64,000 nt of DNA from NCBI GenBank assembly GCA_964456845.1, contig CAYWCV010000006.1, positions 4,093-68,092 on the forward strand, written 5' to 3'. Shown here piece after piece: positions 1-62,610 of the stretch. Source of the DNA: an uncultured Chitinophagales bacterium. GTDB lineage: Bacteria > Bacteroidota > Rhodothermia > Balneolales > CAYWCV01. The notes below the pieces were generated by a model. It saw nothing but the letters and a program-made list of their open reading frames with translations, was not told the origin of the DNA and did not search any database. Within the stretch, counting starts at the first letter, position 1, and each line of letters opens with the position of its first letter. The translations under genes were made by a program, and so were the position numbers.

Positions 1-2393
1 ATTTTCTGCTCAACTATCAAATAGCCCGAGGTATCGGTTCAAGTGGCCTATTGGGAGGAACGATGCTGAACATATTCGAAGCCAACCTGGTTGCTTTTGA
101 AATGCGCGAGGGCAAATTGTTCCTCGTACAGAGACCACATCGATACAAAGCAGAAACGGGCTCCCCGCAGGCTGCATCCGTCGATTACAGCTATGGCGAC
201 TCCGTTCTGGAGACCGCTAAAATTGAGGCTTGGTCTGACGACAAATCGATGATTCTGATCAGTGTGTACGATTGGTTTGTCAGCGACCTGTCAAACATCA
301 GCCAGCGTGTACAGAATGCGGCATCACCACGTCCGGGAACTCCAGGACGCGTCACGTTCGACAAGAGCCGGAGCTATATCGAAAGCGCCAAATCTTTCCC
401 ACTGAATACCAACATCCGTGCCAGCCTCACCTTCAGGAATAATGAATCATCGGGACCTCGCACCGTTGCCGACGCACGCTTTATTCCTGTATCCATCTTC
501 TATTCAATGGCTGCTCTGCCAGAAACCCCAATGAAGCCCCGTGAGGGCGATGAGCGCCTCGGCTATTTCATGACGGTTCACAAAGACTTCACGAACGATG
601 ACAAGAGCTTCTTCAAACGCAACATCAACCGCTGGCGCCTGGAATGTGATGGTCCTGCGGGAAGCGACGGACTTTGCACACCGAAGAAGCCCATCACCTA
701 TTACATCGACCATACCGTTCCTGTTGAGTACCGACAACCTATGATGGAAGGCGTTCTCGCTTGGAACGATGCCTACGAGGCGGCCGGGTTCAAGAATGCC
801 GTGAAGGTCGACATGCTGCCCGATGGAGCCGATCCTGAAGACATCCGCTATGCGACGCTTCGTTGGAGCAGCTCCGACCAGTCGGGCTACAGCGCCATCG
901 GTCCGTCGATCGTCGATCCGCGTACCGGCGAAATCCTGGATGCCGACATGCTCTATGAAGCGAATATGATCATCGGCACACGAAATTCGCAACGGCAGCT
1001 GGTTGAACCAAGAAGTGCCATCGACGAAATGTACATGGCAACCGATGAAGAGCTTGAACTGCAGTCGCAGGGTATCAAGACGGGCAGCTTCTATGCCGAA
1101 GTGGGCGCTCAGCAGGATCTGGTGCGCAGTTTCCTGCTGTTCGGGGGTGCCATGCGGGCCGGAGAAGATGTGCCAAAGACCTTCCTCGACTCGTTCATCC
1201 GTTGGGTGACCATGCATGAGGTTGGCCATACCCTAGGCTTGCGTCATAACTTTAAATCGTCGGCCGACACACCGAACAACAGGCTCACGGACACGTCATT
1301 CACAGAGAAAAACGGAGTATTCAGCTCGGTGATGGAGTACCCAGCCGTAAATCTTGGCAAAAACGCCAGCTCCGACGGCCACTATTATAATGTTGGGGTT
1401 GGATCCTACGATCGCTGGGTGATCACCTATGGCTACACGCCCGACGACTCCAAATCTGAAGCTACCGCACGTCTGGCAGCCCAGCCAGGACACGCGTTCT
1501 CTGACGATGCCAGCGGTGCAAGTGCGATCGATCCGCTTGTAAACACCTATGATCTCGGTGGCGACCCGCTTGCTTGGGGCCGCGAACGAGCCGATATGAT
1601 CAACGCAATGATACCGCGCCTGCCCGAAATCGCCCTCGACGACAATTTGCCGTATTACGAGCTTACCGACATGTACCAATCGTTGCTGCAGCAATATTCG
1701 CGGGCTTTGGCACCGACCGTTAAGTACATCGGAGGTCAACATCTGCATCGCGACCGAGTTGGCGATCCAGACGGACGCATGCCATTCGAGCCCATCAGCA
1801 AGGCCAAGCAGCAGGAAGCACTCGACATGATCGTCGACTATGCCTTCGATGCCGATGCCATGAGCCTGCCGCAGGAGGTTTTCCAGCAGTTTGGCGCCAA
1901 CCGGATGAGCCATTGGGGGCTTACCAACACCTACGGCGGCCGAGTCGACTATCCGCTGCATCAAACTTCGTTGGGGATCAAGACATCGCTGCTGAACCAG
2001 CTGCTCAATCCGACCCGCCTGGAGCGGATACGCGACACCGAAGTCAAGTTCGGAGCCGCCAACACGGTGACCATCCCCGAGCTTATGAAATCGGTCACAA
2101 TGGCCATTTGGGAGGAGATTTGGACCAGTCCAGGCAAGAACATCCCTGGTACACGTCGTGATTTACAGCGTGCTTACATAGACGGCATGATATCGCTGGT
2201 AACAAATCCGTCTTCCGACACACCAGCCGATGCCCGATCCGTTGCCCGCATGACCCTGCAAGATTTGCACGACCGCATCGACGGACGCCTTAAGCCGCCG
2301 ACATTTGCGTTCGACGACTACACCAAGGCACATCTGCAGGAGGCCCGCGCTCGCATCAAGAAAGCCTTGGATGCCGGCATGAGCCAGAATTAG
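1..2393 (+). CDS. Zinc metalloprotease, metzincin-type (DUF5117/DUF4953-like), 5' end cut by window edge
   Basis: The reading frame is open from nt 3 with no stop before the listed TTG at 51, so the gene begins upstream of the window. The zinc site HEVGHTLGLRH (HExxHxxGxxH) is encoded at 1215-1247. The stop TAG lies at 2391-2393. Confidence 0.8.
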   Translation, partial: FLLNYQIARGIGSSGLLGGTMLNIFEANLVAFEMREGKLFLVQRPHRYKAETGSPQAASVDYSYGDSVLETAKIEAWSDDKSMILISVYDWFVSDLSNISQRVQNAASPRPGTPGRVTFDKSRSYIESAKSFPLNTNIRASLTFRNNESSGPRTVADARFIPVSIFYSMAALPETPMKPREGDERLGYFMTVHKDFTNDDKSFFKRNINRWRLECDGPAGSDGLCTPKKPITYYIDHTVPVEYRQPMMEGVLAWNDAYEAAGFKNAVKVDMLPDGADPEDIRYATLRWSSSDQSGYSAIGPSIVDPRTGEILDADMLYEANMIIGTRNSQRQLVEPRSAIDEMYMATDEELELQSQGIKTGSFYAEVGAQQDLVRSFLLFGGAMRAGEDVPKTFLDSFIRWVTMHEVGHTLGLRHNFKSSADTPNNRLTDTSFTEKNGVFSSVMEYPAVNLGKNASSDGHYYNVGVGSYDRWVITYGYTPDDSKSEATARLAAQPGHAFSDDASGASAIDPLVNTYDLGGDPLAWGRERADMINAMIPRLPEIALDDNLPYYELTDMYQSLLQQYSRALAPTVKYIGGQHLHRDRVGDPDGRMPFEPISKAKQQEALDMIVDYAFDADAMSLPQEVFQQFGANRMSHWGLTNTYGGRVDYPLHQTSLGIKTSLLNQLLNPTRLERIRDTEVKFGAANTVTIPELMKSVTMAIWEEIWTSPGKNIPGTRRDLQRAYIDGMISLVTNPSSDTPADARSVARMTLQDLHDRIDGRLKPPTFAFDDYTKAHLQEARARIKKALDAGMSQN

Positions 2394-2434
2394 TGACTAG
2401 TGACTAGTGATTAGTGATTAGTAGTTTAGTAGTT
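2391..2434. repeat. Tandem repeat block (TAGTGAC)x2 (TAGTGAT)x2 (TAGTAGTT)x2 starting with the gene's own stop codon
   Basis: Read directly: tagtgac tagtgac tagtgat tagtgat tagtagtt tagtagtt. Because the period is 7, TAG and TGA fall in all three frames. It contains ACTAGT palindromes. Confidence 0.9.
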
Positions 2435-2439
2435 TAAAA

Positions 2440-2472
2440 TCCCCTCTCTAAATGTTTAGAGGGGGGATTTTC
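2440..2472 (+). terminator. Rho-independent terminator after the metalloprotease gene
   Basis: The stem tcccctctcta (2440-2450) pairs with tagagggggga (2457-2467), 11 bp including one G-U pair. The loop is aatgtt and a tttt tract follows at 2468-2471. Confidence 0.7.
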
Positions 2473-2554
2473 TTGATGCGCACTCATTTGCGAGAATGTA
2501 ACTGCGTGTGTACTTTAGCCTTGTATATATGACATTTAACACCGAGGGGGCACG

Positions 2555-3046
2555 GTGAATTCTAACACGTCAACCATTTTGCCAAGGCAATCAGGTTCAT
2601 TTTCGAATGCACCTTTTGTGCTAAAGGCATTGCTTCTTTTCTCTTTGATGACGGTGGCTTTCGACATTTATATGAACGTGATAGGTCCTCTTCATATCAA
2701 AGAAGCGGTTATTCCCTATACAGGCTGGAGTGTAAGCACGTCGTACAGCTTTGTAGCGATAGCATTGGTGTTTTTAATGCTCGGCTATCATTCTAGTCCA
2801 TTCTACAGTAGAAAAATCATCGCCTTTATTTTATGTATCGGCATCATCTTCGGCATAGCAGACATTGAATCCGCCTTTGGCGTCGAAGATTATGGCAACC
2901 CATACTTAACCGTCAGCCCGTGGCGACCGGTTTGGACCATCATCATACCTTCTATTTGGGTGGCTCTGCTATATACACCTGGCGTAAACCGGTATTGTGA
3001 ACATTTGGAGAACAAGTTTCCCAGGATGTTGAGCCACTATCGATGA
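2555..3046 (+). CDS. Hypothetical integral membrane protein (about 4 TM segments)
   Basis: A 163-aa ORF with a GTG start and several hydrophobic stretches (LLLFSLMTVAF, FVAIALVFLML, IIAFILCIGIIFGI, TIIIPSIWVALL). I recognise no family motif. Confidence 0.5.
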   Translation: MNSNTSTILPRQSGSFSNAPFVLKALLLFSLMTVAFDIYMNVIGPLHIKEAVIPYTGWSVSTSYSFVAIALVFLMLGYHSSPFYSRKIIAFILCIGIIFGIADIESAFGVEDYGNPYLTVSPWRPVWTIIIPSIWVALLYTPGVNRYCEHLENKFPRMLSHYR

Positions 3047-3209
3047 ATTCGTCTCTGGTAGTCGTTTTCATATGCATATCGATCGAAAGAGCAGTAATCT
3101 ATTGCACAATCCCATTCTGTTCATAATGATTGCGGGCTTCTGAAAATTCAGTATCTGAACATTATTCATCGTAATATGTTGATCATCCGACGGTTAAGAC
3201 TGATCATGT

Positions 3210-5222
3210 ATGCGTATAGCATCACAGGAAAGCAATTTAGAACGTCTAGCTTTAATACAAGGATTGCTTGTCGGGCTAAGTCCGCTTCCGTTTGTCCTTT
3301 TTGATGTAGCGGCTGGAGACTACCAATACCCAAAATGGTTTGCGATTATACCGTACCTCGCGTTCGCGGTTAATCTCGTTGCGGTTTTTTATCCGTTTAA
3401 GAAATGGAGGAATAGACGTTCATTTGGCACCATCGGTGTAGTGATGACATCTTCGGTGCTATACCCGATGTTACCTGAGCGGCCCGACATCTCCCTTGCC
3501 GTATTGGTACTATTGGCCGCCACCCATTTTTCCCTGTTCGAGCAGAATGTCTTCGCCTATTATACACGCCGGGTTTCACGATTTGACCGATACAACATCA
3601 GCTTAAAAAGTGGTGTACTCAGCTTCAGCGCCCTCCAAGCGATTATTGTGTTCAATGATTGGGATATCGGGCTCCCTTCAATTGCCATCAGTGCATTGAC
3701 ATTCAGCACCATATTAGTCGCAGTCATTTTTCTTGTCGTTGGCAAGCCTGGTTTTCGGTTATCAACTATTTTTATAAATGTCGGATGGGCGCTTGTTCTG
3801 GTTGTAAGCATTATTGTGCTTCCAGATACACATACGCTGTCTTACATTTTGCTTACTGTTTTTTTGATAAGCTTGCCATCTAAGAAGGGAAGTGGCAATA
3901 TTGGCGGATGGCTTGAGTATGCCGTTGCCAAACCGGCCAGGGCTTTGGTATCGATGTTCTTGGCTGCCGGTTTTGTCGGATCAGTCCTGCTTTACTTACC
4001 AGTGTCTCAAACGGGTCCGATATCATGGTTAGATACGTTCTTTACAGCGATAAGTGCTGTGTGCGTTACAGGGCTCATTGTGGTCGACACGCCAATGGCC
4101 TATTCCTTCTGGGGCCAGCTTATAATCCTGATCCTCATTCAACTGGGTGGCTTGGGAATCATGAGCGTGTCCATCATTCTACTTCAACGGCTCGGGAAAC
4201 GTATAAGCATCAGTCAAGAACAAGTGATGGTATCGATGACCGATGCGGACAAACGGGACATCTACACATCGATACGCTTGATCTTGGTATTTACTATTGC
4301 TGCCGAATTGTTGGGAGCCATTTTATTGGGCGCAATGTTCTTTCAGGCCGGCGACGAACTGGGATATGCCATTTGGAGAGGTCTGTTCACATCGGTGTCG
4401 GCATTTTGTAACGCCGGTTTTGCCTTACAAAGCGACAGTTTGATGGCATACGCTGGTAATTCGGGCATCCTTACGGTCGTATCAATACTCATCATAATTG
4501 GCGGCATCTCACCATTGTACACCATGATGATTGTGCGGCGGATGTCGTTCAAGACGCTCAACGCCAGTCTGAAACTTACCTTGTACATCGTCCTTGCCTT
4601 ACTTGTACTTGGCACAATGTCCACATTGGTTTTTGAGTGGAATGGCACCCTCGGTTCAATGGCATTCGGCGACAAAATCATAAATGCATGGTTTCAATCC
4701 GTCACACTCCGTACTGCTGGCTTCAACTCCGTTGACCAAGCCCTTCTTAGCACCCCTACCTATTTGATGTCACTGGTTTGGATGGTTATCGGCGGAAGTC
4801 CGGGTGGCACGGCCGGGGGCATTAAGACTGCGGTCGTAGGTTTGATTCTGCTCAACTTTATTTCGCAGATCAATCAAAAACAAAGCTTGATCTTCGCGGG
4901 CAGGGTGTTTCCTATGGGTTCAATACTCCAAGCGGCCTCGATTGTAACCGCCTACGGTTTTGTGCTTTCAATGGTGCTCTTGGCGATGATCTTGACTCAA
5001 AATATCCCGATAGACGCACTTTTATTTGAAGTCATATCCGCTTTGAGCACGGTCGGCCTCTCTATGGGCGCGACAAGCATGGTTGACCCCCTTGGCAAAT
5101 GGATCTTGATTTTCACTATGTTCATTGGCAGGGTGGGTGCCGTAACCATCTTCATGCTTCTGAGCAAAGACGTGCGGACTGACCACATTGAGTTCCCCGA
5201 AGAGCAACCTACGTTAGCATAA
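3210..5222 (+). CDS. ktrB: KtrB/TrkH-family potassium transporter with an extra N-terminal multi-TM domain of about 235 aa
   Basis: The C-terminal 430 aa or so match the KtrB/TrkH pattern (FTAISAVCVTGL, LIQLGGLGIMS, SAFCNAGF, TAGFNS, GGSPGGTAGGIKT, ALSTVGLS). A ktrA gene follows 10 nt downstream. The N-terminal 235 aa are hydrophobic and have no recognisable motif. Confidence 0.85.
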   Translation: MRIASQESNLERLALIQGLLVGLSPLPFVLFDVAAGDYQYPKWFAIIPYLAFAVNLVAVFYPFKKWRNRRSFGTIGVVMTSSVLYPMLPERPDISLAVLVLLAATHFSLFEQNVFAYYTRRVSRFDRYNISLKSGVLSFSALQAIIVFNDWDIGLPSIAISALTFSTILVAVIFLVVGKPGFRLSTIFINVGWALVLVVSIIVLPDTHTLSYILLTVFLISLPSKKGSGNIGGWLEYAVAKPARALVSMFLAAGFVGSVLLYLPVSQTGPISWLDTFFTAISAVCVTGLIVVDTPMAYSFWGQLIILILIQLGGLGIMSVSIILLQRLGKRISISQEQVMVSMTDADKRDIYTSIRLILVFTIAAELLGAILLGAMFFQAGDELGYAIWRGLFTSVSAFCNAGFALQSDSLMAYAGNSGILTVVSILIIIGGISPLYTMMIVRRMSFKTLNASLKLTLYIVLALLVLGTMSTLVFEWNGTLGSMAFGDKIINAWFQSVTLRTAGFNSVDQALLSTPTYLMSLVWMVIGGSPGGTAGGIKTAVVGLILLNFISQINQKQSLIFAGRVFPMGSILQAASIVTAYGFVLSMVLLAMILTQNIPIDALLFEVISALSTVGLSMGATSMVDPLGKWILIFTMFIGRVGAVTIFMLLSKDVRTDHIEFPEEQPTLA

Positions 5223-5232
5223 CAAGCAAATC

Positions 5233-5898
5233 ATGGCACAACAGATCATCATCATCGGCCTTGGACATTTTGGGATGTCCTTGGCAAAAACCTTGGCGGC
5301 TCGCCAGGTAGAAGTGATAGCAACCGACATCCGAAAGCATTTGGTGGACGAAGCTTCTGCATTTGTGTCTGAGGCTATTCTCATGGATGCAAGCGACGAA
5401 CAGGCACTGTCCAACCTGCGTCCAAAAGAACGCGATGCGGCAGTATGTGCTATAGGCGACGACTCCAAAGAGGCATCGATCATTGCTACCGCCTTACTTC
5501 GGCAGATGGGCTGCCCTTATGTGATAGCCCGTGCAAACGATGAAATCCACGCAAGAATCTTGCGCCTGGTCGGGGCGCATATGGTCGTAAACCCCGAGCA
5601 GGAATTTGGCAACCGATTTGCGAACAAACTGCTGTACAGAAATGTCATCGCCGACACGGCGCTTCACGATGGGCTTACACTCACCGAGATCTCCGTCCAC
5701 AACAAAATGGCTGGCAAAACACTCGCAGAACTGCAGCTTCCAAAAAAGTATGGTGTAATGGTGGTTGGAATTCGCCGGATTGACCACTCAGAAGTCGTTC
5801 AGCCATCGCCGGATGTGCCGTTAAACGAAGCCGACACGCTACTTGTGGTGTCAAACGAAAAGAACATCATCAACATGATTAAAAGCCTGCTCGTATGA
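5233..5898 (+). CDS. ktrA: KtrA, potassium uptake regulatory subunit (RCK: TrkA-N plus TrkA-C)
   Basis: It has an N-terminal Rossmann motif IIGLGHFG. The 221-aa length is typical of single-RCK KtrA. It sits directly after ktrB. Confidence 0.85.
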   Translation: MAQQIIIIGLGHFGMSLAKTLAARQVEVIATDIRKHLVDEASAFVSEAILMDASDEQALSNLRPKERDAAVCAIGDDSKEASIIATALLRQMGCPYVIARANDEIHARILRLVGAHMVVNPEQEFGNRFANKLLYRNVIADTALHDGLTLTEISVHNKMAGKTLAELQLPKKYGVMVVGIRRIDHSEVVQPSPDVPLNEADTLLVVSNEKNIINMIKSLLV

Positions 5899-6587
5899 AA
5901 ACGCTGCTATCCATCCGATTGGGGATCATGATCATCCTGACACTGATACTGGTGATGGCGTTCAGCTCAATTTACGTCTTCACCAGAATGAGTCCGGCAA
6001 TCGAAATCATCATCCAACAAAACGAGCGATCCCTTTTTGCCTGCGAAGAGATGCTGTTCGCCATGTTGTACAACGACTTAACTGTGACTTCAGGAAATCG
6101 GAATGCATCGGTATTTCGTTTTGAACAAGCCTTGAACAGTGCCATAAATAACATCACAGAAGCCGAAGAGCCGGAAGTCCTCGACGTCATTCAAAAATCA
6201 TACAAGTCTGCCTTGGCCGGTGACGCACAATCAAGGATTCAGTTGATGGAAGGCATTGCATCTCTCAGCGCAATCAACAGAGCTGCCATGATCCAAGCTG
6301 ATGTCCGTGCACGTCGACTTGGAACGGCAGGTGCTTGGAGTGTTGTCTTCATTACCCTGTTTGTGGTAATATCTACCTTGATTTTTAGAAACAATTTGTT
6401 CTCAAGGTTGATTATTCCCTTCAACGAACTTAAAGAATCGATAGAGGCATTTCTGCAAGGGGACATCTATAGAAGATGCAACAGTCGCGGACACCCGAAG
6501 GACATTCAGCAGCTATTCAGCAATGTGAACGAGTTGCTCGATAAATCGACGAGCAATCAACCAGAATACATCCCGTTTCGCGAATAA
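5895..6587 (+). CDS. Membrane protein: TM1, helical extracytoplasmic domain, TM2, HAMP; no output domain
   Basis: Its start overlaps the ktrA stop (ATGA at 5895-5898). There are two TM segments (IMIILTLILVMAFSSIYVF and WSVVFITLFVVISTLIF). TM2 is followed by a HAMP-like stretch, IIPFNELKESIEAFLQGDIYRR...DIQQLFSNVNELLD, and the protein ends about 15 aa later. Confidence 0.6.
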   Translation: MKTLLSIRLGIMIILTLILVMAFSSIYVFTRMSPAIEIIIQQNERSLFACEEMLFAMLYNDLTVTSGNRNASVFRFEQALNSAINNITEAEEPEVLDVIQKSYKSALAGDAQSRIQLMEGIASLSAINRAAMIQADVRARRLGTAGAWSVVFITLFVVISTLIFRNNLFSRLIIPFNELKESIEAFLQGDIYRRCNSRGHPKDIQQLFSNVNELLDKSTSNQPEYIPFRE

Positions 6588-7297
6588 GGCGCCGATTCGT
6601 CGACCATGAAATAGACGATCTCTGCATCGGGTTGCGCTTTTACTTCGATTTCCTCGTTTTCGACCAAGACCCCATCCCCCTTTTCGAGTGTAGTATCGTG
6701 CCCTGGTAATTGCACGGCACCCGAAAACACATACAGATAGCCAGTGCGTCCATTTAACTCCGGTGTCCGGATTTGAGCTGAGTCGAGCAGGCGCGAGTCG
6801 TACAACCACGACTCGCTACGGATCTTCAGCGGCGCATCGCTGTGCTCGGGTCCGCCGATCCATCGCCATTCGTTGTCGGAGAACTCCTCCTCGAAATCGG
6901 CAAACTGGACCATCGGCTTCAGATCGTCGGTATGTGGACGGAAAAACACCTGCAGCATGTCGATCGGCGCGGCGTCTTGGGGCACATCCTCCTCGTGGTA
7001 GATCACCTTTCCTGCGTTCATCATCATCATCTTTGCATGATTGATTGGCATGTGGATGCCCTCGCTGTCGCTATGGTACATCGTCCCACGGCGCATGTAC
7101 GACAGGATCTCGTCGTTGGCATGCGGGTGCATCCCGATCGTGAAGCCAGGCTCCAATGTGGAATGGTCAAAAGCACCCAAGGTTGCAAGGCCCCGCTCGA
7201 AACGATTATTCCGCTTCAAACCGGGATACACGCGGCGCATCACAAACTTGCCTCTGTTTAATTCCAATCGATCTGACGCTCTGCTTACGGTAATCAT
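6557..7297 (-). CDS. Pirin-family cupin protein
   Basis: The cupin metal motif region GMHPHANDEILSYMRRGTMYHSDSEG and the 246-aa length fit the family. It overlaps the convergent gene 5895-6587 by 31 nt. Confidence 0.7.
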   Translation of the reverse strand: MITVSRASDRLELNRGKFVMRRVYPGLKRNNRFERGLATLGAFDHSTLEPGFTIGMHPHANDEILSYMRRGTMYHSDSEGIHMPINHAKMMMMNAGKVIYHEEDVPQDAAPIDMLQVFFRPHTDDLKPMVQFADFEEEFSDNEWRWIGGPEHSDAPLKIRSESWLYDSRLLDSAQIRTPELNGRTGYLYVFSGAVQLPGHDTTLEKGDGVLVENEEIEVKAQPDAEIVYFMVDESAPYSRNGMYSG

Positions 7298-7433
7298 GAC
7301 CCACCTGTTCGTTTTCTGGTTATGCCGGTTTGCTATGACTCACGTTGAAAGGGAGCACAACTCAACCGTATCCTTTATTTGTTTACAACAACTAATTTAT
7401 GCCAATTTTCGTTCTCAATCAAATGACAGCTGT

Positions 7434-8858
7434 TTAGTCACCGTTGATATTAATCGGCCTCCTTACTCGGAGCCTCTCAATCTCGATGGACGCCTCGGCG
7501 GTTGCATTGAGCACAAACTGGATATTGTTCCGAGTCACCAAGAAATTCCACGACTGAAATTCAAGTGTGTCGATTGTCAGGTCGAGCCGTTCTGCCGACT
7601 TCCCCTCCTCGATGGCCTCCGATATGAGGGAAGGCAATCGGCGGATTTCATCGCCGACAAACAGCACCAAGTAACTCGACAGCTGTTCGAGCGCGTAATC
7701 GTAGATGGCCGAGTTTGCAGCATTGATGACCTGGCTTTCTGTCTGAACATCGTACGTAAGGTTTGTGACCACCAACTTGCGCTCATCGGGCAGGTACTCA
7801 GGTTGACCAATGATGTATATCGATCCGTTGGCAAATCCGCTCACATCTAGGCGGATGGCAATTCCTTCGTCGGTACCATACATTCGTGCCCCGCGGACCT
7901 TCAGATCCATCCCGTATCGCGATATGACCAAACCTTTGACTTGCCGGTCGAGCATGAGGTTGACAACATCGTATGGAACGGTGCCCTTGACAGCCATTGT
8001 CAAAGTGTCGAGTTCTGGCATTTTCTGCCGAATGTCCGGCAGGCGCGACGACACTGCCAAGGCTGTGGAATCGAAACCGACTTCGGTATACGCTCCGACT
8101 AGCACGTTGAATATGATATCTTGGTCATCCGATAGATGAAGGTCACCATAAATATGCTGAGTGTGAATTTTGAACCAAATACGTGGCTCCTCTTTCACAA
8201 TCGCCATTGGTTTTTGGATGTCGCCCCATACTTTTGCAATGGCCTTATGCAGGTTGATGTGCTCATACACGGCAGAATCTACCTTTGCGAGCAGTTCAAC
8301 CTCTCTTTTGGCGATGATATTCTCCAGATATTTGGTAAGTGGGATGCGCAGCGGACCCAAATGCAGTTTTGGGTTTTCTTCCCAATCGATTCCATCAAGA
8401 CGCGTATCCGAGATGATCTTCCAATTCGAATCAATGTCGAGAATCGAGGAAATATTCAGCGTAAGGCTGGTTTCGATCGGCTGATTATGTCCAAATCGTA
8501 TTCCTAAGACGTACTTGAAGTAGTTGCCTTTCATGCTCACAGGTAACGAAAAGTGCATGCGACCCTGTTTGATCGACATCCGGATCGGACTCATCTTCGT
8601 CACTTCGAGATACACGCTGTCCTTCCCGTCATTAATCCGAAATCCGTGATCAATGAAGGTGCCGTCGATCTTGATGTTCATCCAGTCTTCGAACTGCTGG
8701 ATGGGGTAATAGATCGGCATGCGATAGTACGACATATCATGCTTGATCTTGGCTTCAAGAGTGGTTGATTTTGGCCCTTCCGGGTTTACCCTTGCACAGG
8801 AGCTGCCAAGAATTACAGTCGCCAGGCAGCCAAATACTACAAAAGTTCTGAGTCTCAT
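7434..8858 (-). CDS. Lipoprotein of unknown function (possibly DUF4403-type)
   Basis: I chose the internal ATG at 8856-8858, which gives the signal peptide MRLRTFVVFGCLATVILGSSC with lipobox LGSSC. The family assignment is from memory of size and architecture only. Confidence 0.55.
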   Translation of the reverse strand: MRLRTFVVFGCLATVILGSSCARVNPEGPKSTTLEAKIKHDMSYYRMPIYYPIQQFEDWMNIKIDGTFIDHGFRINDGKDSVYLEVTKMSPIRMSIKQGRMHFSLPVSMKGNYFKYVLGIRFGHNQPIETSLTLNISSILDIDSNWKIISDTRLDGIDWEENPKLHLGPLRIPLTKYLENIIAKREVELLAKVDSAVYEHINLHKAIAKVWGDIQKPMAIVKEEPRIWFKIHTQHIYGDLHLSDDQDIIFNVLVGAYTEVGFDSTALAVSSRLPDIRQKMPELDTLTMAVKGTVPYDVVNLMLDRQVKGLVISRYGMDLKVRGARMYGTDEGIAIRLDVSGFANGSIYIIGQPEYLPDERKLVVTNLTYDVQTESQVINAANSAIYDYALEQLSSYLVLFVGDEIRRLPSLISEAIEEGKSAERLDLTIDTLEFQSWNFLVTRNNIQFVLNATAEASIEIERLRVRRPININGD

Positions 8859-9078
8859 ATTGACTCCGTGTGCTAAATCCGACAAGCTAATCACTTATTT
8901 GTGGCACGATACGGCCCTGTATGAACCATGTTGGCTACTTCATTACAGAGCGTGCGTTCAGTAATCAATCGAATATTGCACTGCTATGTACATATGGTTT
9001 TACTCCGAAATACGCTTATAGATCCGTAAATCCTATTTCCCATCTTTTAATCCCATTGATCTGAAAGATCCGCGGTCA

Positions 9079-10371
9079 TTACTCCGTGGTCAGGCTTTCA
9101 AGGTCGGTCCAGAAATCCGGGTACGACACCGCCGCGTGCTCGGCGCCCTCTATGTTCACATCGCCGTCGCAGCGCACGGCGGCGACACCGGCACTCATGG
9201 CGATGCGGTGGTCATGGCGGCTGTCGACTTCGAGGCTGTCAAATCGATGGTCGGGTTGTCCTTCGATGCGATAGCCGTCCTCATACTCCTCCACAGGAAT
9301 CCCAATCGCCCGCAGCATCCCGGCCATGGCATCGATACGGTCGCATTCCTTGACACGCAACTCACTGGCTCCCCTCACCTCGGATTCACCCTCGGCAAAG
9401 GCCATGGCCACCGATAGCACCGGAATCTCGTCGATGGCCACTGCAACCTCGGCCTCCGACATGGAAGTCGCCTGGAGTCGGGTCGGACGCACCGAAAGGT
9501 CGGCAACAATCTCGGCGCCGGCCTGGCGCTCCTCAATGACCCGTATGTCGGCGCCCATGCGTCGCAGCACATGCAGAGCGGCGTCGCGTGTCGGATTTAA
9601 TCCAACATTCTTCAAGACCAGCTCCCCCTCCCGCATGATAGATCCGGCCACCATCCAAAACGTGGCGGACGAAAAGTCGCCCGGAACGTCATAGTTCTGC
9701 AATGGTACCTGGTGTGACCGCGAGCTGTAAATCAGGCGCGTGCCATCATCCAACAATTCATCCCTCAAACCCAGCAACACCTCCGTGTGATTGCGGCTGG
9801 GCATCGTCTCGCGCACGATTACTTCATCATCGCAATACAAACCAGCAAGTAAGATGCACGATTTAAGCTGTGCGCTCGCTATCGGCAATGTGAAATCAAT
9901 AGATGTTAACCCTGCGTTGGCATGTAATTCAAGCGGCGGATAGGTGCCGTCGCGAGCATCGATGCTGGCTCCCATTTGTCCTAGCGGACCCATCACCCGT
10001 TTCATGGGTCGTTTACTCAGGGAGGCATCACCGGTCAGAGTACACTCGATGCCGGCACCTGACAAAATCCCTGCCATAAGCCTCATCGTTGTACCCGAGT
10101 TTTCGCAGTCAATAACCCCAGTTGGTTTCTGCAGCAAGTGCCGTCCCCGTCCGTGAACCATTACGGTTGTTCCCTGCTGTTCAACCTTTACACCCAGCGA
10201 CTGAATTACTTTCAGCGTGGTCTGTGGATCGGCAGCCTGTGCATAGTTGCCAATTGCCGATGTACCATCGGCCAGTGCAGCGAACATGGCTGCGCGGTGT
10301 GCAATGGATTTGTCGGGAGGAATCTGAACGACGCCGTTCAGACCACCCAAAACGGAGATGGATTTACGCAT
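9079..10371 (-). CDS. aroA: 3-phosphoshikimate 1-carboxyvinyltransferase (EPSP synthase)
   Basis: The PPDKSIAHRAAMFAALA N-terminus, ENSGTTMRLMAGIL and ELRVKECDRI motifs, and the 430-aa length all fit. Confidence 0.95.
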   Translation of the reverse strand: MRKSISVLGGLNGVVQIPPDKSIAHRAAMFAALADGTSAIGNYAQAADPQTTLKVIQSLGVKVEQQGTTVMVHGRGRHLLQKPTGVIDCENSGTTMRLMAGILSGAGIECTLTGDASLSKRPMKRVMGPLGQMGASIDARDGTYPPLELHANAGLTSIDFTLPIASAQLKSCILLAGLYCDDEVIVRETMPSRNHTEVLLGLRDELLDDGTRLIYSSRSHQVPLQNYDVPGDFSSATFWMVAGSIMREGELVLKNVGLNPTRDAALHVLRRMGADIRVIEERQAGAEIVADLSVRPTRLQATSMSEAEVAVAIDEIPVLSVAMAFAEGESEVRGASELRVKECDRIDAMAGMLRAIGIPVEEYEDGYRIEGQPDHRFDSLEVDSRHDHRIAMSAGVAAVRCDGDVNIEGAEHAAVSYPDFWTDLESLTTE

Positions 10372-10398
10372 AGGAACTGAAGAGGATAATCGTGGCTA

Positions 10399-13398: not shown

Positions 13399-13504
13399 GG
13401 AAAAGCTTCGTATAAATCCTGATATGCGTGATACGTTCTTCAACGATGGGCGGGCTTTATTGTTTCCCGTCGGCAGAATCTACGCAAACTTTCAGATCTA
13501 ATCC

Positions 13505-14176
13505 TTACAATTCGAGGAATCGGATCAACTCGTTGGCGCGGTCGGCCCATTCGGCGTCGTCATGGGAGCGGGCATCCGAGTGGACGGCATATCCAAACCG
13601 GCGCAGCGACGATACGGCACGGTCGGCGTTTGTGGGATCGAGGCGCATCGATATTTTGTGCACTTGCTCGTCGCCGTCGTTCTCGGCGGCATACTCGACA
13701 CCCATCGAGAGTATGCGTACCCCCTCCGTTTCGATGATGCCAATGATAGACTGGAGCTCTGGGGTGCGCTGGTCTGATTCGATAAAAATCGTCAGGCCTT
13801 CCTGCATCAGCCCCAGGGCCTGCTCCACTGCCTGCCTTACATCTTCGAGAGTGACAAAGCCCAGAAAGTTACCGCTGCGCTCTGCAACAGGTATCACGTG
13901 TTGCCCTGTAGCATTGATGGAGTGCCAGACGTCGAAAACGTGCTGTTCCGGATAGGCCATGAGCGATGTCTCAAACGACTGCATTGGCAGTATCTCATCC
14001 TTCACATGGTCTAGCAGCACTTCTTCCCTGATGGTGCCGACCAAAACCCTGTTCATGCGGTCGATAATCGGCACACGCGACTCCCCATGAAGTGCCGACC
14101 ACGAAAGCGCATGCATAGGCGACTGATCAGAATAGACCGGGTCGTGATCGACATGTATGAGGTGGGAGACTAGCAT
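13505..14176 (-). CDS. CBS-pair domain protein with C-terminal ACT-like domain
   Basis: Two CBS-like units are visible (VPIIDRMNRVLVGTIREEVLL and VIPVAERSGNFLGFVTLEDV). It starts 2 nt after the hflX stop. Confidence 0.65.
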   Translation of the reverse strand: MLVSHLIHVDHDPVYSDQSPMHALSWSALHGESRVPIIDRMNRVLVGTIREEVLLDHVKDEILPMQSFETSLMAYPEQHVFDVWHSINATGQHVIPVAERSGNFLGFVTLEDVRQAVEQALGLMQEGLTIFIESDQRTPELQSIIGIIETEGVRILSMGVEYAAENDGDEQVHKISMRLDPTNADRAVSSLRRFGYAVHSDARSHDDAEWADRANELIRFLEL

Positions 14177-14178
14177 AC

Positions 14179-15558: not shown

Positions 15559-16096
15559 CCTTATACGTCAATATACGCCTGAACGTTTCGTATCTATCGT
15601 TCGGAACTTTTAATTTGATACGGTGCGAGCGCAGACCGTTCGTTTCGGCTGATGTAAAGAAAAACGTAAACTCCGTGTATCCTTCGCGTGGCAGTTCCAA
15701 GTAGTCGTTCACCCTGCTCCAAGCAATCGTCTGGGACGGATCGTTGATATTCTTGACAATGCCGTTATCGGTGATGTAGCGCTTCGACATCAGATAATAG
15801 GCGACGTACCAGTTGACTCCCATCCATAGGTAAGCCAGTTCGTAGGGCCGGTAGGCCGACTCACCCAGAGCTGTGTGATAAACCGATGTAAAAACCACCA
15901 AGACCAAGAAAACTGCCGGAAAGACGGGGATGCCGTGCAGACCAGGGTCCTGCCACGTGAGGATGCAATTTCTCAAGCGACGCGTATTGAACCATGTCCA
16001 AACGGTCAACACGGTAGACCCGAACACAAAAAGCACCAGCGCTGCAATGAATGCAGTCAAGGCCATGTTGGTGATATGTGGGGTCAATTCAAACAT
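15500..16096 (-). CDS. Hypothetical membrane protein (3 TM segments plus a soluble C-terminal domain)
   Basis: Taking the start at ATG 16094-16096 (MFELTPH) gives an ATGTTTGA overlap of 8 nt with the upstream gene's stop at 16089-16091. I recognise no family motif. Confidence 0.55.
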   Translation of the reverse strand: MFELTPHITNMALTAFIAALVLFVFGSTVLTVWTWFNTRRLRNCILTWQDPGLHGIPVFPAVFLVLVVFTSVYHTALGESAYRPYELAYLWMGVNWYVAYYLMSKRYITDNGIVKNINDPSQTIAWSRVNDYLELPREGYTEFTFFFTSAETNGLRSHRIKLKVPNDRYETFRRILTYKVDRHLSQAWSETSDIERSY

Positions 16097-18209: not shown

Positions 18210-18231
18210 CTCGTAAGATAATCAAGAACGG

Positions 18232-18313
18232 GAACAAGAACAGAGCAAGAGCAAGAGCAAGAACAAGAACAAGTGCTAGTGCTAGTGCTAGTGCTAGTGC
18301 TAGATATTGCTAG
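18232..18313. repeat. Hexamer microsatellite block: about 7 units of (AGCAAG/AACAAG), then (TGCTAG)x5
   Basis: Read directly at 18232-18273 (gaacaa gaacag agcaag agcaag agcaag aacaag aacaag) and 18274-18303 (tgctag x5), plus atattgctag. It begins 23 nt upstream of the BatA-like start codon. Confidence 0.9.
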
Positions 18314-18470
18314 TCTGGTCTGTTTAAATGATAATGAATCAAAACGGATTGATTTGAGTATGCTATTTTAATGACTTTTTGAAGCCATAGCCATCTCAAG
18401 CCGAGTACTCATAGCGCCATGATAGCAAAATGTTGCGCTGCATCATTTCGTTTCAACTTACATCTCCAAC

Positions 18471-20690
18471 ATGACATCAACCCGAAGCACCAATTACCCC
18501 ATTCCCTTGCACTCGCACTCGCACTTATTCTTGCTCTTGCTCTTGCTCTTGCTCTTGTTCTCGTTGTCATCCTGCTCTCCGAAATCAGATCCCGACTGGT
18601 CCCGGTTTCTTCCCGATCAGACAGTCTTGGTCTATTGGGGTGATGGAGATCGTGACGGCAGGCTGCGTACTGACATTGGCGAGCTTATTGGCAAGCCGAT
18701 CTTGTCGCGCCTTGTATTGGGTGATACCGTCGCTTCGGAACCGGCGGCAACGGCATTGGTTCCCGAAAGCGTCGACCAACTTTCCGCTCTGTGGATTTTC
18801 GATGCATCTGAAGATCTGAAAACAGTGCTCACTGGCGGCGGATGGGTGAACAAGGGTGGTTACACCATCACCGAAGGTCGCGTTGACTTCTATGACAAAA
18901 GTGGTGTTTCGGTCGCTATGGGCTCCACTTCGACATGGACCTTGGTATCAGAGAGCAGTCGGACGATTGAACAGGCGTTAAGGGCAGCCGATGGTTCCAT
19001 ATCACGTTTGGTGATCGCCAACACGCCGGGTTTCCATCTGAATGTGGGCGAATTCGGCAGGCTGTTCGCTCCATTGGCAAATTCGTCCGTCCGATCTGAA
19101 CTGGCGAAGGCGTTGCGTGGCCTGGGCACCGTATTGATCGAACCTCCAAGTAGTGGCGACCAGGCAGAATGGCTCATTGATATTCCTGTGACGGCGGAGG
19201 TCTCGAATCTGGTGAAGTATCTTTCGGCTCGTTCGTCTGTTGCCGCATCTTCTTTTGAGGTTCCTGCCGGTGTGGCATTGAGCTTGGTGTGGAACGACCC
19301 CTACGGCATTGACGTGTTCGACGAAATCCGTTCATCGAACAGTAGCGGTACTGCTGTGCGATCGGCCATTGGTGCGATGTCGCCGCATTTGTCACCGGAG
19401 GTTGCGATGTACGTAACGGAGGCGCCATCGGCCGCGGTGGCTTATGTCAGAAGGGCCAACATGGCATCAATTGGGGATGTTTTTGCCGATTTATATCAAC
19501 AAGGCATGCTCGATGGCGAGGGTGAGGTGTTCGTTGGGCGAGATCCGGCGCTTGCGGTGGCCATATGCTCCGGTCTTTGCGACTTGAGCCGGTATTCTAT
19601 TGGGCTGCGTGAGGACGGCATCGTGATATCGTCGAGCGAAACCTTGGTGCGCAGGTTGATGGTAAACGACGGTGCTGGATCTAGCCTTGAGTCTTTGGTT
19701 CCTGCGGGTGGGGTTGGCGCCGGCGGGATGGAAGGCTCCTACGGGTGGGCTGACGTATCTTCACTGATCGCGGCAGCCAGAGCGAACGGGTGGATGGTGT
19801 CAGACAGGCCGGTTCCAGGCATCCTGCGAAGATTTGCATCTGTGGCGTATTCGGCGCGGGCGGGCGACGGAAGGCTCACCCTGAGGCTGAGGTTGGATTC
19901 AGGTTCGACTGGCGGTTCACGTACCGACCTGATTTTGGCATGGCAGTATCCGCTTCGGGATGATGCCCTCATATCGGAGCCGGTAGCAACGGTACTCAAC
20001 GGCAGGCCATTGATCGTGGCCACCACGAGCTCTGGGCGTGTCTTGGCGCTAGGTGCAGAGGGCACCCTGCAGTTTGAGGTCACGACAGGGACGCAGACAC
20101 CTATGGGAGGGGTTGAGATCTATGATTGGTATGCCAATCGATCGCCCGTCGTCTTGCAGGCTGCTGGGTCAGCAATCTACGCTTGGAGTCCATCAGGTAA
20201 TCTGCTGCCAAGCTTTCCGTTCGTGATCGACTCACCCATAAGCGCCCCGATCACCCTCACCGACATCGATGGGAATGCCGAACCCGAAATCCTCGCGCCC
20301 ACCGAAGACGCACGCCTTCATTTGATCAACCGCGATGGAAGAGGAGTGTCTGGATGGCCGGTGTACACCGACGGCAAAATTGTGAAAAAACCAGTGATCA
20401 CCCAATCCAATGGAGATTGGGCGGTCGAGGTCATTACAGAGTTTGCAACCGAGGTGTACGACAAACTCGGTCAACGAATATCAAGCCGCCCTCATCTCGA
20501 CGACATTTCAGTAGACACAGATTCGTTGGTCGCCCATTCTTCCCCTTCTGGGTTTGATGGAAGTGCACCCATGCTCTATGGTCAATTCCCCATTGTTGCC
20601 GACATCGACGGCGACGGCAGAATGGAGCTCATTGTGGTATTAGACGGCCAGATTCGTTGCTACCGGCTTCCTTCCAATCGGGCTGACTGA
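18471..20690 (+). CDS. Lipoprotein with C-terminal FG-GAP/VCBS-like beta-propeller repeats
   Basis: The signal peptide ...HLFLLLLLLLLLFSLSSC carries lipobox LSSC. FG-GAP-like motifs TDIDGNAEPEILAP and VADIDGDGRMELIVV lie near the C-terminus. Confidence 0.7.
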   Translation: MTSTRSTNYPIPLHSHSHLFLLLLLLLLLFSLSSCSPKSDPDWSRFLPDQTVLVYWGDGDRDGRLRTDIGELIGKPILSRLVLGDTVASEPAATALVPESVDQLSALWIFDASEDLKTVLTGGGWVNKGGYTITEGRVDFYDKSGVSVAMGSTSTWTLVSESSRTIEQALRAADGSISRLVIANTPGFHLNVGEFGRLFAPLANSSVRSELAKALRGLGTVLIEPPSSGDQAEWLIDIPVTAEVSNLVKYLSARSSVAASSFEVPAGVALSLVWNDPYGIDVFDEIRSSNSSGTAVRSAIGAMSPHLSPEVAMYVTEAPSAAVAYVRRANMASIGDVFADLYQQGMLDGEGEVFVGRDPALAVAICSGLCDLSRYSIGLREDGIVISSSETLVRRLMVNDGAGSSLESLVPAGGVGAGGMEGSYGWADVSSLIAAARANGWMVSDRPVPGILRRFASVAYSARAGDGRLTLRLRLDSGSTGGSRTDLILAWQYPLRDDALISEPVATVLNGRPLIVATTSSGRVLALGAEGTLQFEVTTGTQTPMGGVEIYDWYANRSPVVLQAAGSAIYAWSPSGNLLPSFPFVIDSPISAPITLTDIDGNAEPEILAPTEDARLHLINRDGRGVSGWPVYTDGKIVKKPVITQSNGDWAVEVITEFATEVYDKLGQRISSRPHLDDISVDTDSLVAHSSPSGFDGSAPMLYGQFPIVADIDGDGRMELIVVLDGQIRCYRLPSNRAD
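18509..18564. repeat. Intragenic hexamer repeat (GCACTC)x3 (CTTGCT)x4-6, an inverted copy of block 18232-18313
   Basis: Aligned by hand, the reverse complement of 18232-18303 (..gcactagcactagca cttgtt cttgtt cttgct cttgct cttgct..) matches gcactcgcactcgca cttatt cttgct cttgct cttgct cttgct cttgtt. The block encodes HSHSH-LFLLLLLLLLLF. Confidence 0.85.
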
Positions 20691-27203: not shown

Positions 27204-27231
27204 CATTGGACATTGGACATTGGACATTGCT
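27204..27231. repeat. Heptamer tandem repeat (CATTGGA)x3 plus CATTGCT
   Basis: Read directly in the accA/arsR divergent intergenic region. Confidence 0.85.
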
Positions 27232-27241
27232 CTTGTTTTAT

Positions 27242-27272: not shown

Positions 27273-27276
27273 TTTC

Positions 27277-29801: not shown

Positions 29802-29808
29802 TTAGTTC

Positions 29809-29886
29809 AGTAGTAGAGTAGTAAATACGAATACTACTCTACTACTATACCACTTTACCACTCTACCACTTTACTACTTTACTACT
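29809..29886. repeat. Perfect 15-bp hairpin followed by an octamer array (nTACYACT) of about 7 units
   Basis: The stem agtagtagagtagta (29809-29823) pairs with tactactctactact (29832-29846) around an 8-nt loop. The 3' arm continues as ataccact ttaccact ctaccact ttactact ttactact up to 5 nt before ATG 29892. Confidence 0.9.
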
Positions 29887-29891
29887 CTTCT

Positions 29892-30895: not shown

Positions 30896-30916
30896 TTTTC
30901 CTCAAGAGAGGGATGT

Positions 30917-30959: not shown

Positions 30960-30965
30960 CATTCT

Positions 30966-50887: not shown

Positions 50888-50890
50888 TCT

Positions 50891-52765: not shown

Positions 52766-52791
52766 CAAACTATCAGCAAGGAGTCCGATCT

Positions 52792-61552: not shown

Positions 61553-61829
61553 CGCTTCAAAGTGTTATGGCGAGGAGAGTGGGGATCCCCTAATGGTGTG
61601 AATGAGAGAGTCACTAAACCTGAGATGGACAACACGAATATTGTCATTATTCCTTAACTATACAAATAGGATCTTTATGCTGCCTTCGTTTTACTCTGAT
61701 TATTTCAAAAGTGTGGCTTATTGTCAAAAAATGTGCGAATATATGGCTGATTCCCTGAGAATAGCGGCAGAGCAGATTAAATCCACACATCAACCGCTAT
61801 TCGATCGTCGTGGTCCGACTCCAGTTTGT

Positions 61830-62465
61830 ATGAACGCATTGCCAGAACTAAAGCCAAATACCCCGGGCAAGGTTTCACTTGCCCTTTTTGATTTTGACGG
61901 CACCTTAACCTATGGCGACTCATTCATGGCCATGCTGCGCTTTGAGCTTGGCGATGCAAAAGTCGTGATGGGTGTGTTGCGCTGGCTTCCGTGGCTTCTA
62001 GGTTACTTGGTCGGATTTGTGTCGCGCACAACCATCAAGACGCGCGTGCTGAACTGGTCGTTTGGCGGAATGACCCGAACCGAAATCCTGGACATGTGCG
62101 AACGGTTCACCGAGCAGAAGATCGACTCGCTGTTCAGAAGCGATGCCCTCAAGAGGTTGCATGAACATATCTCCCGGGGCGACAAAGTTTATGTCGTCAC
62201 GGCCTCGCCCGAAGAATGGGTGAAGCCTTGGTGCGACAAGATGGGGATCGAGTGCATCGGCACACGTCTGGCATACGATCTGCGCGACAAATTCGCCGGC
62301 CACCTTGTGGGAGCCAACTGCCATGGAGTCGAGAAAGTGCGCCGCATCCGTCAGGTCATCCCACTCGACGAGTACCCTGTGCGTTATGCGTACGGCGACA
62401 GCCGCGGCGACCTCCCGATGCTCGGACTGGCGCAGTACAGAGGGTATCGGGTGTTTAAGTCATGA
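61830..62465 (+). CDS. HAD-IB family hydrolase (phosphoserine-phosphatase-like)
   Basis: Motifs LALFDFDGTLTYGDS, VVTASPEEW and YGDSRGDLPML are present. The start is uncertain: ATG 61830 is preferred and ATG 61743 is possible. Confidence 0.75.
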   Translation: MNALPELKPNTPGKVSLALFDFDGTLTYGDSFMAMLRFELGDAKVVMGVLRWLPWLLGYLVGFVSRTTIKTRVLNWSFGGMTRTEILDMCERFTEQKIDSLFRSDALKRLHEHISRGDKVYVVTASPEEWVKPWCDKMGIECIGTRLAYDLRDKFAGHLVGANCHGVEKVRRIRQVIPLDEYPVRYAYGDSRGDLPMLGLAQYRGYRVFKS

Positions 62466-62467
62466 AC

Positions 62468-62610
62468 AATCATTAGCAAGCATTAGCAATGACTAGCAAT
62501 CATTAGCAGTGACTAGCAGTGACTAGCAGTTACCATCGGTGGTCATCGCTGGCATTTGGTAATAACTGTTAGTTATTGTTAGTCATTGCTAATGATTGCT
62601 AATGATTGCC
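62468..62610. repeat. Roughly 145-nt imperfect palindrome built from 10-nt tandem repeats (ARTSAYTAGC x6 and inverted GYTARTSATT x5)
   Basis: The left arm (62468-62534) reads aatcattagc aagcattagc aatgactagc aatcattagc agtgactagc agtgactagc agttacc. The right arm (62558-62610) reads ggtaataact gttagttatt gttagtcatt gctaatgatt gctaatgatt gcc, which is the reverse complement of the left arm with a few mismatches. Confidence 0.9.

Follow-up and report, generated by a model that had tools for sequence, protein, structure and literature searches.

The short tandemly repeated repetitive elements known as STRRs, reportedly described by Mazel and colleagues in 1990, consist of 7-nt units belonging to a few genome-wide families (CCCCAGT, TTGGTCA and CAACAGT). 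In several cyanobacteria, STRR hairpins lie between the co-transcribed hupS and hupL genes, where a role in transcript stability or coupling is suspected (PMC2670836). A wider class, the long simple sequence repeats (LSSRs), comprises tandem arrays of 5-11 nt units with heptamers the commonest, a sporadic phylogenetic distribution and a proposed origin by slippage (Mrazek et al. 2007, in the summary of PMC4679880). In Xanthomonas and Nostoc, the heptamers GGGAATC and GGGGA(C/T)T (Rehm et al. 2015) are for the most part found within 50 bp of a stop codon, in some cases overlapping it, and form 70-75 convergent inverted pairs per genome that are capable of stem-loops. They recur between the same genes in related species with variation in length and sequence, and their function is not known (PMC4692102). 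TAACTGA heptamers, known from Beggiatoaceae, cyanobacteria and five Bacteroidetes, often precede a start codon directly where Shine-Dalgarno (SD) sites are scarce (MacGregor 2015; PMC4679880). Here we describe tandem arrays of 6-10 nt units at five loci in a 64-kb stretch of contig CAYWCV010000006.1 (the window), from an uncultured bacterium of a Balneolales-like lineage. The best explanation, to which we give an even chance, is that slippage generated these STRR-like arrays and that constraint keeps them at fixed intergenic sites, where they act in cis on transcripts, an old, site-specific set in one Balneolales-like lineage.

Arrays in excess of chance at sites kept in relatives

A preliminary description of the window had listed five intergenic loci with short-period tandem repeats. 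Tandem Repeats Finder (TRF) recovered all five as genuine tandem arrays with periods of 6, 7, 8 and 10 nt and 82-100% matches. The sites are mostly intergenic as described, with the exception of the right arm of locus 2, which is part of the sequence coding for the N-terminus of a lipoprotein (gene 18471-20690). Seven arrays of period 5-12 had a TRF score of at least 50, a density of 10.9 per 100 kb, compared with none in 100 dinucleotide-preserving shuffles of the window. Among the outgroups (1.39 Mb for both sets), other Balneolales-like loci totalling 518 kb showed 0.39 arrays per 100 kb and other Bacteroidota loci totalling 872 kb showed 0.80 per 100 kb, confirming that the arrays are not a chance feature and are restricted in lineage. 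The outgroup loci are an unbiased sample; the clade loci described below were picked around arrays, and clade density is therefore not an independent estimate. The window has a GC content of ~52% and contains no tRNA and no match to an Rfam family.

Relatives were found by protein search (87-91% identity for the MBL-rhodanese protein, 81-90% for the HAD hydrolase and 60-74% for the lipoprotein) and sampled at loci 2-5, on contigs syntenic with the window. An AccA search of species-representative genomes gave best matches of 72-76% to Balneolales or 'Bacteroidetes' metagenome-assembled genomes (MAGs), which were used as outgroups and not as orthologues. A BatA metagenome search returned one distant match. 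Arrays were present in every orthologous gap examined at loci 2-5 (L081, L083, L084/85, L090, L091, L093, L094, L095 and L097). All arrays with a score of at least 50 in ~100 kb of clade sequence sat at these four sites and no off-site arrays were seen. The 77%-identity relative L087/L088 carried no arrays at these sites. Because the relatives come from independent NCBI, JGI and Logan assemblies, recurrence at orthologous sites also answers the concern that the arrays might be assembly artefacts. Several contigs break within arrays (L081/L082 at start and end, L085 and L048 at the start, L096 at the end), indicating that orthologous arrays will be under-sampled in MAGs.

Unit type was kept at these sites whilst copy number varied. 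At locus 3, L083 carries (ATTGGAC)x10.6, L097 a perfect x5.6 array of the same unit and L084/85/95 (GACATCGA)x4.4, with the period shifting from 7 to 8 nt between lineages and copy number spanning 3.7 to 10.6. At locus 4 the arms are AGTAGTAG/TACCACTC in L083 and L097, AGTGGTT/AACTACT in L081 and TTCACCAA/TCACTATA in L084-86. At this locus L084/L086 and L085 differ by one TCACTATA unit although their MBL-rhodanese proteins are identical, a sign of slippage. In L090, locus 5 consists of longer inverted decamer arrays around the conserved centre, and in L091/92 and L093 of right-arm decamers only, (TGATTGTTCG)x3-4. At locus 2, L094 has (CAAGAG)x17.5 upstream together with repeat-encoded signal peptides, and the arms in L097 and L095 are shorter or more degenerate.

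The retention of site and unit type is the main new evidence, as synonymous sites in these relatives are near saturation: 4-fold degenerate sites are only 32-49% identical to those of the window. In a 22-kb pairwise alignment with L097, array-bearing segments were 82-93% identical and coding DNA 66-81%. An array-free intergenic control (8895-9078) was 56% identical in this alignment, and two other array-free gaps 70% and 85%. By this measure the arrays appear as conserved as regulatory DNA, though not uniquely so. Units identical in three lineages, the heptamer GACATTG at locus 3 and the octamers AGTAGTAG/TACCACTC at locus 4, are hard to reconcile with neutral drift of the unit consensus.

These data bear on the possibility that the arrays are a functionless by-product of a slippage-prone replication or repair regime. 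Arrays would then pile up where they are tolerated (spacers, the regions past stop codons, signal-peptide cores) and intrastrand template switching would both create inverted arms and homogenise them. Such an origin is consistent with the heterogeneity of units and periods between loci, the 7 to 8 nt shift at locus 3, copy number that differs between lineages and strains, and the contig breaks. The absence of the locus 5 left arm from L091 and L093, a better-folding strand with no consistent relation to transcription, and sporadic heptamer arrays in the outgroups, including an identical TAGTGAT unit in Flavobacterium, point the same way. In the summary given by PMC4679880, Mrazek et al. likewise ascribe the heptamer excess to polymerase slippage. 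By contrast, purely neutral arrays would not be expected to occupy four sites across lineages so diverged at 4-fold sites, to keep their unit types, with 7- and 8-mers identical in three lineages, or to be missing off-site in ~100 kb of relatives. Bacterial deletion bias is moreover expected to remove useless inserts of 50-200 bp. A wholly neutral origin is the main rival explanation, possible but on the unlikely side.

Stop codons, unit sequences and known repeat classes

The five loci had been proposed to form one dispersed family seeded on a TAGT/CTAG core. The counts behind this proposal were reproduced: by word count TAGT/ACTA is present in loci 1, 2, 4 and 5 and absent from locus 3, and CTAG occurs two, five and three times in loci 1, 2 and 5, respectively. 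Outside the arrays CTAG is mildly avoided, with an observed/expected ratio of 0.70, the second lowest of any tetranucleotide in the window (the lowest is GGAC at 0.64). The family itself did not hold up. BLAST of each locus against the window and 97 loci detected no similarity between loci, matching only the locus itself and its own orthologues, and orthologous arrays often lack TAG (units TATCAATTAC, TGATTGTTCG, CAAGAG, GACATCGA and TTCACCAA). An array in the unrelated genome of Flavobacterium sandaracinum (L075, 7880-7916) reads TAGTGAT TAGTGAT TAGTACT TAGTGAT TAGTATT, with the unit of locus 1, indicating that such units arise independently. Eight further outgroup arrays have unrelated units, six of them heptameric (ACTCCCT, CTCTCAC, TAATTCG, CTAAAAT, CTTCTAA and others).

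Seeding on stop codons accounts for the shared words. As first described, three arrays start at or near a stop codon. The first base of locus 1 is that of the TAG stop (2391-2393) of a DUF4953/DUF5117 metallopeptidase gene (51-2393; Pfam), and the arrays at 29803 and 62467 begin 1-2 nt past a TGA that is included in their first degenerate units, TGATTAGT and TCATGAACAA. Since the periods of 7, 8 and 10 nt are not multiples of three, an array seeded on the stop of its gene rotates that stop through the frames, giving the observed richness in TAG, TGA and CTAG. All three frames are closed within 42 nt of the stop at 3 of 47 gene ends, exactly the three that bear arrays. Those 42 nt hold 11 stop triplets at locus 1 and five at each of the other two array-bearing ends, against a mean of 1.7 for other genes. 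The all-frame stop wall suggested earlier is thus real as a description, but follows automatically from seeding an array of such a period on a stop. The CTAG excess likewise reflects three amplification events and not a common core.

The preliminary description knew of no matching repeat class. The arrays nevertheless fit the LSSRs and closely parallel the cyanobacterial STRRs and the Xanthomonas/Nostoc heptamers. In common with LSSRs, they consist of head-to-tail copies of a unit of 1-11 nt, here with TRF periods of 6, 7, 8 and 10, and within these 64 kb of the genome exceed statistical expectation in length (seven against none in 100 shuffles). Sporadic, lineage-specific abundance and the prominence of heptamers are further likenesses to the class as PMC4679880 summarises it, as is the tolerance in coding DNA of periods that are multiples of three, represented here by the hexamer array in a signal peptide. 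The LSSRs are however a descriptive class with no implied function, whose LSSR-rich taxa in that summary do not include Balneolales-like bacteria, whereas the present sites are conserved across saturated synonymous divergence.

The likeness to STRRs lies in non-coding short tandem units with hairpin potential that are kept between genes across species, and locus 4 is a close analogue of the hupS-hupL STRR. Here, though, heptamers are confined to loci 1 and 3, the unit differs from site to site, with periods of 6, 7, 8 or 10, and none of CCCCAGT, TTGGTCA and CAACAGT occurs in tandem in the window. Nor is the host a cyanobacterium: the best AccA matches, from Balneolales/Bacteroidota, do not exceed 76% identity, and BatA, DUF4953 and DUF5117 genes are present. 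With the Xanthomonas/Nostoc heptamers the arrays share stop-proximal positions, inverted pairs, orthologous positions with length variation, over-representation in non-coding DNA and independence from mobile elements. Those heptamers, by contrast, are built on one G-rich unit (GGGNATC), prefer about four units and form G-quadruplexes. The present loci have no common unit and no repeated G-tracts (a single GGG in the left arm of locus 2 and no CCC in the arrays), and the window holds no tandem GGGAATC, GGGGACT or GGGGATT. Two of the five loci moreover are flanked by divergent genes, an arrangement under-represented among the Xanthomonas arrays. TAACTGA arrays resemble ours in their intergenic position, SD-poor context (8/45 in the window), unit-sized indels between strains, contigs that end in arrays and stop triplets (TAA, TGA) within the unit. 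They differ in having a single unit that is rarely inverted (one indirect repeat in 170 sets), compared with inverted pairs at three of five loci here; TAACTGA itself occurs in the window as one single copy and never in tandem. As no named unit is found in tandem and G-tracts are lacking, the arrays resemble these families in behaviour and belong to no unit-defined family.

Repetitive extragenic palindromic (REP) sequences and the bacterial interspersed mosaic elements (BIMEs) of enterobacteria consist of one conserved palindrome in hundreds of dispersed copies linked to RAYT transposases. As extragenic hairpins after stop codons and between operon genes, the arrays are a plausible functional analogue of REP/BIME in the role of mRNA 3'-end stabilisers. 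They differ from REP/BIME and from MITEs (miniature inverted-repeat transposable elements) in that no sequence is common to the loci, by BLAST, and the stems are built from tandem units. The terminal inverted arms of loci 2 and 5 around a unique segment could still suggest a mobile or templated family of the REP/BIME, MITE or CRISPR-like kind. Such an origin is effectively refuted: apart from true orthologues, no copy of an arm or spacer exists elsewhere in the window or the 97 loci, and neither CRISPR-type spacers nor an Rfam match was found. An assembly artefact is refuted to the same degree by the arrays reproduced at orthologous sites in the NCBI, JGI and Logan assemblies. A CRISPR, considered separately, would have direct repeats of ~23-50 nt with unique spacers, whereas the units here are contiguous, of 6-10 nt and without spacers.

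Paired arms and gene context

Table 1. Array features of the window, with TRF calls
Feature	Position	Strand	Description	TRF calls
Locus 1 array	2391..2436	+	(TAGTGAC)x2 (TAGTGAT)x2 (TAGTAGTT)x2 (TRF, sequence)	2391-2422, TAGTGAC, 4.6 copies; 2418-2436, TTAGTAGT, 2.4 copies
Canonical intrinsic-terminator hairpin	2436..2471	+	AAAATCCCCTCTCTAAA / TTTAGAGGGGGGATTTT, directly 3' of array 1 (repeat search, fold)	
Locus 2 left arm	18223..18303	.	(CAAGAA/CAAGAG)n then (AGTGCT)x5.3 (TRF, inverted repeat)	18223-18273, CAAGAA/CAAGAG, 8.7 copies; 18272-18303, AGTGCT, 5.3 copies, 100% matches
Locus 2 spacer	18304..18505	+	Holds lipoprotein start codon at 18471	
Locus 2 right arm	18506..18578	+	(GCACTC)x2.8 + (TCTTGC)x5.5, within lipoprotein coding sequence (TRF, translation)	
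Locus 3 array	27204..27231	.	(CATTGGA)x3.7	27204-27229, 100% matches
Locus 4 left arm	29803..29825	+	TAG-rich purine arm TTAGTTCAGTAGTAGAGTAGTAA, starting 1 nt after TGA of MBL-rhodanese gene 28422-29801	
Locus 4 right arm	29832..29891	+	(TACYACTN)x7.6, G-free, reaching ATG of yeeE-like gene (29892)	29832-29892, TACTACTC, 7.6 copies
Locus 5 left arm	62467..62535	+	Six decamers of CATTAGCAAG / GACTAGCAGT type (TRF)	62467-62530, 10-nt units
Locus 5 centre	62536..62566	+	ACCATCGGTGGTCATCGCTGGCATTTGGTAA, conserved in L090	
Locus 5 right arm	62567..62609	+	TGTTAGTCAT / TGCTAATGAT decamers, then conserved TATTTTTAT	62585-62609, 10-nt units

Loci 2, 4 and 5 have inverted partner arrays, in agreement with the three pairs first reported. 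The inverted arms of locus 5 (62467-62535 / 62540-62608) are 69 nt each with a 4-nt gap. At locus 4 the first 15 nt of the right arm are 100% complementary to the left arm (29809-29823 / 29832-29846), and at locus 2 (18225-18297 / 18506-18578) the best 50-nt segment is 90% complementary. All three can fold into hairpins. Locus 5 reaches -75.5 kcal/mol (z -10.3) in the window and -90.8 kcal/mol (z -11.3) in its L090 orthologue, locus 4 in the window -23 kcal/mol (z -4.1), and the locus 2 arms pair across ~200 nt with z -8.

The arms also co-vary, as seen at the level of units (an ungapped comparison of the locus 5 stem between the window and L090 lost register). In the window the inner decamers of locus 5 read GCAGTGACTA / TAGTYATTGY, and in L090 they read TCAATTACTA / TAGTAATTGA, amounting to two G:C to T:A exchanges per unit. 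At locus 2, GTGCTAG / CTCGCAC is specific to the window and found in both of its arms, and GAGAATGA / TCATTTCTC is specific to L095 and found in both L095 arms. Comparing arm-to-arm identity with identity to the orthologue was not discriminating, as sequences of such low complexity align to anything.

Which strand folds better is conserved for each locus: the sense (+) strand at locus 5, by ~15 kcal/mol, and the minus strand at loci 4 and 2 in every lineage. The G.U asymmetry, taken as a test for a sense-strand RNA hairpin, was consistent per locus and favoured the sense strand only at locus 5, which neither proves nor refutes such a hairpin. Behind the asymmetry at locus 4 are TACCACT variants, which in + strand RNA are unable to pair with AGTAGTA; on one reading, these variants may keep the G-free yeeE leader single-stranded.

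A folding preference independent of transcription would also fit elements acting as DNA, either binding-site arrays for a lineage-specific DNA-binding or nucleoid protein or cruciforms acting on replication or supercoiling. Unit sequences are conserved, and locus 5 remains strong with DNA folding parameters (-40.7 kcal/mol, z -9.0). Nevertheless, no unit is common to the loci that could serve as a single recognition sequence, neighbouring sites spaced at 6-10 bp would not share a face of the helix, the arms are only 74-85% complementary as DNA, and no candidate protein came to light. DNA-level elements are therefore very improbable.

In an intrinsic terminator, a short GC-rich stem precedes a U-tract at the 3' end of a gene. 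At locus 5 the hairpin precedes the conserved TATTTTTAT, but its stem is AU-rich and ~50 bp long, and this T-run persists in the stemless L091 and L093. At locus 1 a separate terminator hairpin directly follows the array (Table 1), indicating that array 1 is not itself the terminator. A scan for consensus promoters and terminators gave counts at the level of shuffled sequence and hence uninformative; for terminators, run on positions 1-20000, it flagged neither locus 1 nor locus 2. A Rho-utilisation site was also considered and fits only the G-free arm of locus 4, and a CsrA-type GGA sponge was considered for locus 3. Elsewhere in the window, a long imperfect hairpin without tandem units (30908-30967; -37.4 kcal/mol, z -5.3) separates two convergent genes, 30485-30895 (+) and 30966-32867 (-), and probably serves as a terminator in both directions.

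By Pfam, the genes flanking the arrays encode BatA, a DUF4953/DUF5117 protein, AccA, an ArsR-TauE-(MBL-rhodanese)-YeeE/YedE operon and a HAD hydrolase. At locus 2 the flanking genes, batA-like and lipoprotein, are divergent. Its left arm is 14 nt upstream of the start of the batA-like gene (16089-18209, minus), whose BatA Pfam match begins at residue 1, and read in the batA sense forms a CU-rich leader. The spacer is overall only 62% identical to that of L097, and the blocks GAGTATGCTATTTT and AAATGTTGC...TTTCGTTTCA recur in the window, L094, L095 and L097 in a by-eye comparison of the four sequences. Inverted arms on either side of the promoter and start codon could suggest an invertible promoter, a reading rejected for now because spacer orientation was the same in all four assemblies. 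Translation of the right arm gives ...LHSHSHLFLLLLLLLLLFSLSSC, the hydrophobic core of a signal peptide and a lipobox; the reading (CACTCG)n(CTCTTG)n is translated as ...HSHSHLFLLLLLLLLLFSLSSC. The lipoprotein N-terminus is thus translated repeat DNA: HSHSH followed by L9 in the window (18471-18578) and SRSFLALASRFSLSPLPLPLLLLLLLPLLLLLFSSC in L094 (1443-1600), with a counterpart at 10001-10180 of L097. The pre-lipobox region spans 35-59 residues across lineages. Being encoded by the array, the signal peptide varies with it in length and sequence.

Locus 3 lies between the start of accA (27170, minus) and the promoter/operator of the arsR/BigR-like operon (Pfam). At 27232-27275 the window has a near-consensus sigma-70-type promoter (TTGACA-N16-TATATT) for the sulfur operon arsR, tauE, MBL-rhodanese, yeeE, yedE, which is noteworthy in a Bacteroidota-related organism. 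A perfect palindrome in the promoter spacer, TGAACAAATGTTCA, is predicted to be the repressor operator and is kept even in the 77%-identity relative (orthologues L083, L084, L097 and L087). Locus 4 occupies the 90-nt gap from the MBL-rhodanese stop to the yeeE start, and its right arm is G-free and abuts the ATG in every lineage. The first unit of locus 5 overlaps the TGA of the HAD hydrolase gene (61602-62465), and the locus ends ~77 nt before a yicC-like gene with its start at ~62687. The 5' end of the HAD reading frame (287 aa) has probably been set too far upstream, as homologues of 211-240 aa cover only 74-84% of it.

This context raises the possibility of contingency loci, in which copy number would alter promoter spacing or the length of a leader or signal peptide and so tune the neighbouring genes within populations, as phase switches or rheostats. 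Locus 3 lies in a divergent promoter region with 3.7, 5.6 or 10.6 copies, the lipoprotein gene carries the right arm of locus 2 in the 5' part of its coding sequence, and the one-unit difference at locus 4 separates strains with an identical protein. Phase variation through intergenic simple sequence repeats is also known (PMC12721329). On the other hand, the coding array is hexameric and so could not switch the frame on and off, the neighbours are largely housekeeping or metabolic genes (accA, the sulfur-detoxification operon, HAD, yicC) and three loci are downstream of stop codons, the grounds on which phase variation was considered unlikely for the analogous arrays of Xanthomonas (PMC4692102). 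We consider contingency loci unlikely.

A possible role in transcripts and its significance

Under the explanation favoured here, constrained cis-acting elements of the transcript, replication slippage would create the arrays and keep resizing them, and selection, beyond mutation, would keep them at their sites. An array abutting the 3' end of a gene would start on its stop codon, and periods of 7, 8 and 10 would carry the stop triplet through all frames. A purine-rich, stop-rich arm would thereby come to lie behind the upstream stop, and the complementary, G-poor pyrimidine arm would form the leader of the downstream gene. Paired arms could form long stem-loops in the manner of cyanobacterial STRR hairpins between co-transcribed genes or of REP elements, and these could stabilise, terminate or uncouple transcripts. 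At the divergent pair flanking locus 2, the inverted layout would instead give both transcripts the same CU-rich array at their 5' ends. That the arrays are transcribed at all, and that they influence the stability, termination or translation of mRNA, is inferred.

Several observations weigh against this explanation. Positions relative to genes are heterogeneous, covering 3' ends, intercistronic gaps, divergent promoters and the inside of a coding sequence. The better-folding strand does not track gene direction, and of the three loci with paired arms only one supports a sense-RNA hairpin. A partner arm is missing from loci 1 and 3, and L091 and L093 lack the left arm of locus 5, showing the hairpin to be dispensable there. 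Co-variation of the arms could stem from templated repair, by template switching or gene conversion, and not from selection. Finally, alignment identity is a crude measure of constraint in repetitive DNA, and one array-free gap also reached 85%.

Only 8 of 45 genes are preceded by an SD-like core, even one of 4 nt, and G makes up just 18% of the leaders, suggesting an organism largely without SD sites. A more specific proposal builds on this. The arrays would be selectively maintained, site-specific cis-regulatory modules, the Bacteroidota-side counterpart of STRRs, in which the stop-rich arm closes all frames behind the upstream gene and the G-poor arm provides the downstream gene with an unstructured leader for SD-independent initiation. 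Pairing of the arms, tuned by C/U exchanges, would set transcript stability or translational coupling. Locus 2 would place the same array in the 5' regions of both divergent genes, with one of the copies also encoding the poly-Leu core of a signal peptide. In this detailed form we think the proposal improbable, though not negligible.

For ~35 years STRRs and heptamer LSSRs have been on record from a few bacterial lineages, and no function has been established for them. The window adds a new, unrelated lineage, previously not noted for such arrays. It also adds evidence that arrays can be constrained and not accidental, with four sites and their unit types kept, and paired arms changing together, across relatives with near-randomised synonymous sites. 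Seeding on stop codons combined with periods that are not multiples of three provides a simple account of the richness in TAG, TGA and CTAG. In practical terms, metagenome contigs break at such arrays. Should a function be demonstrated, the variants found naturally among orthologues would offer an experimental series that already exists. If the arrays are indeed cis-regulatory modules, the function of STRR-like arrays would be directly testable through orthologues that differ in units and copy number.

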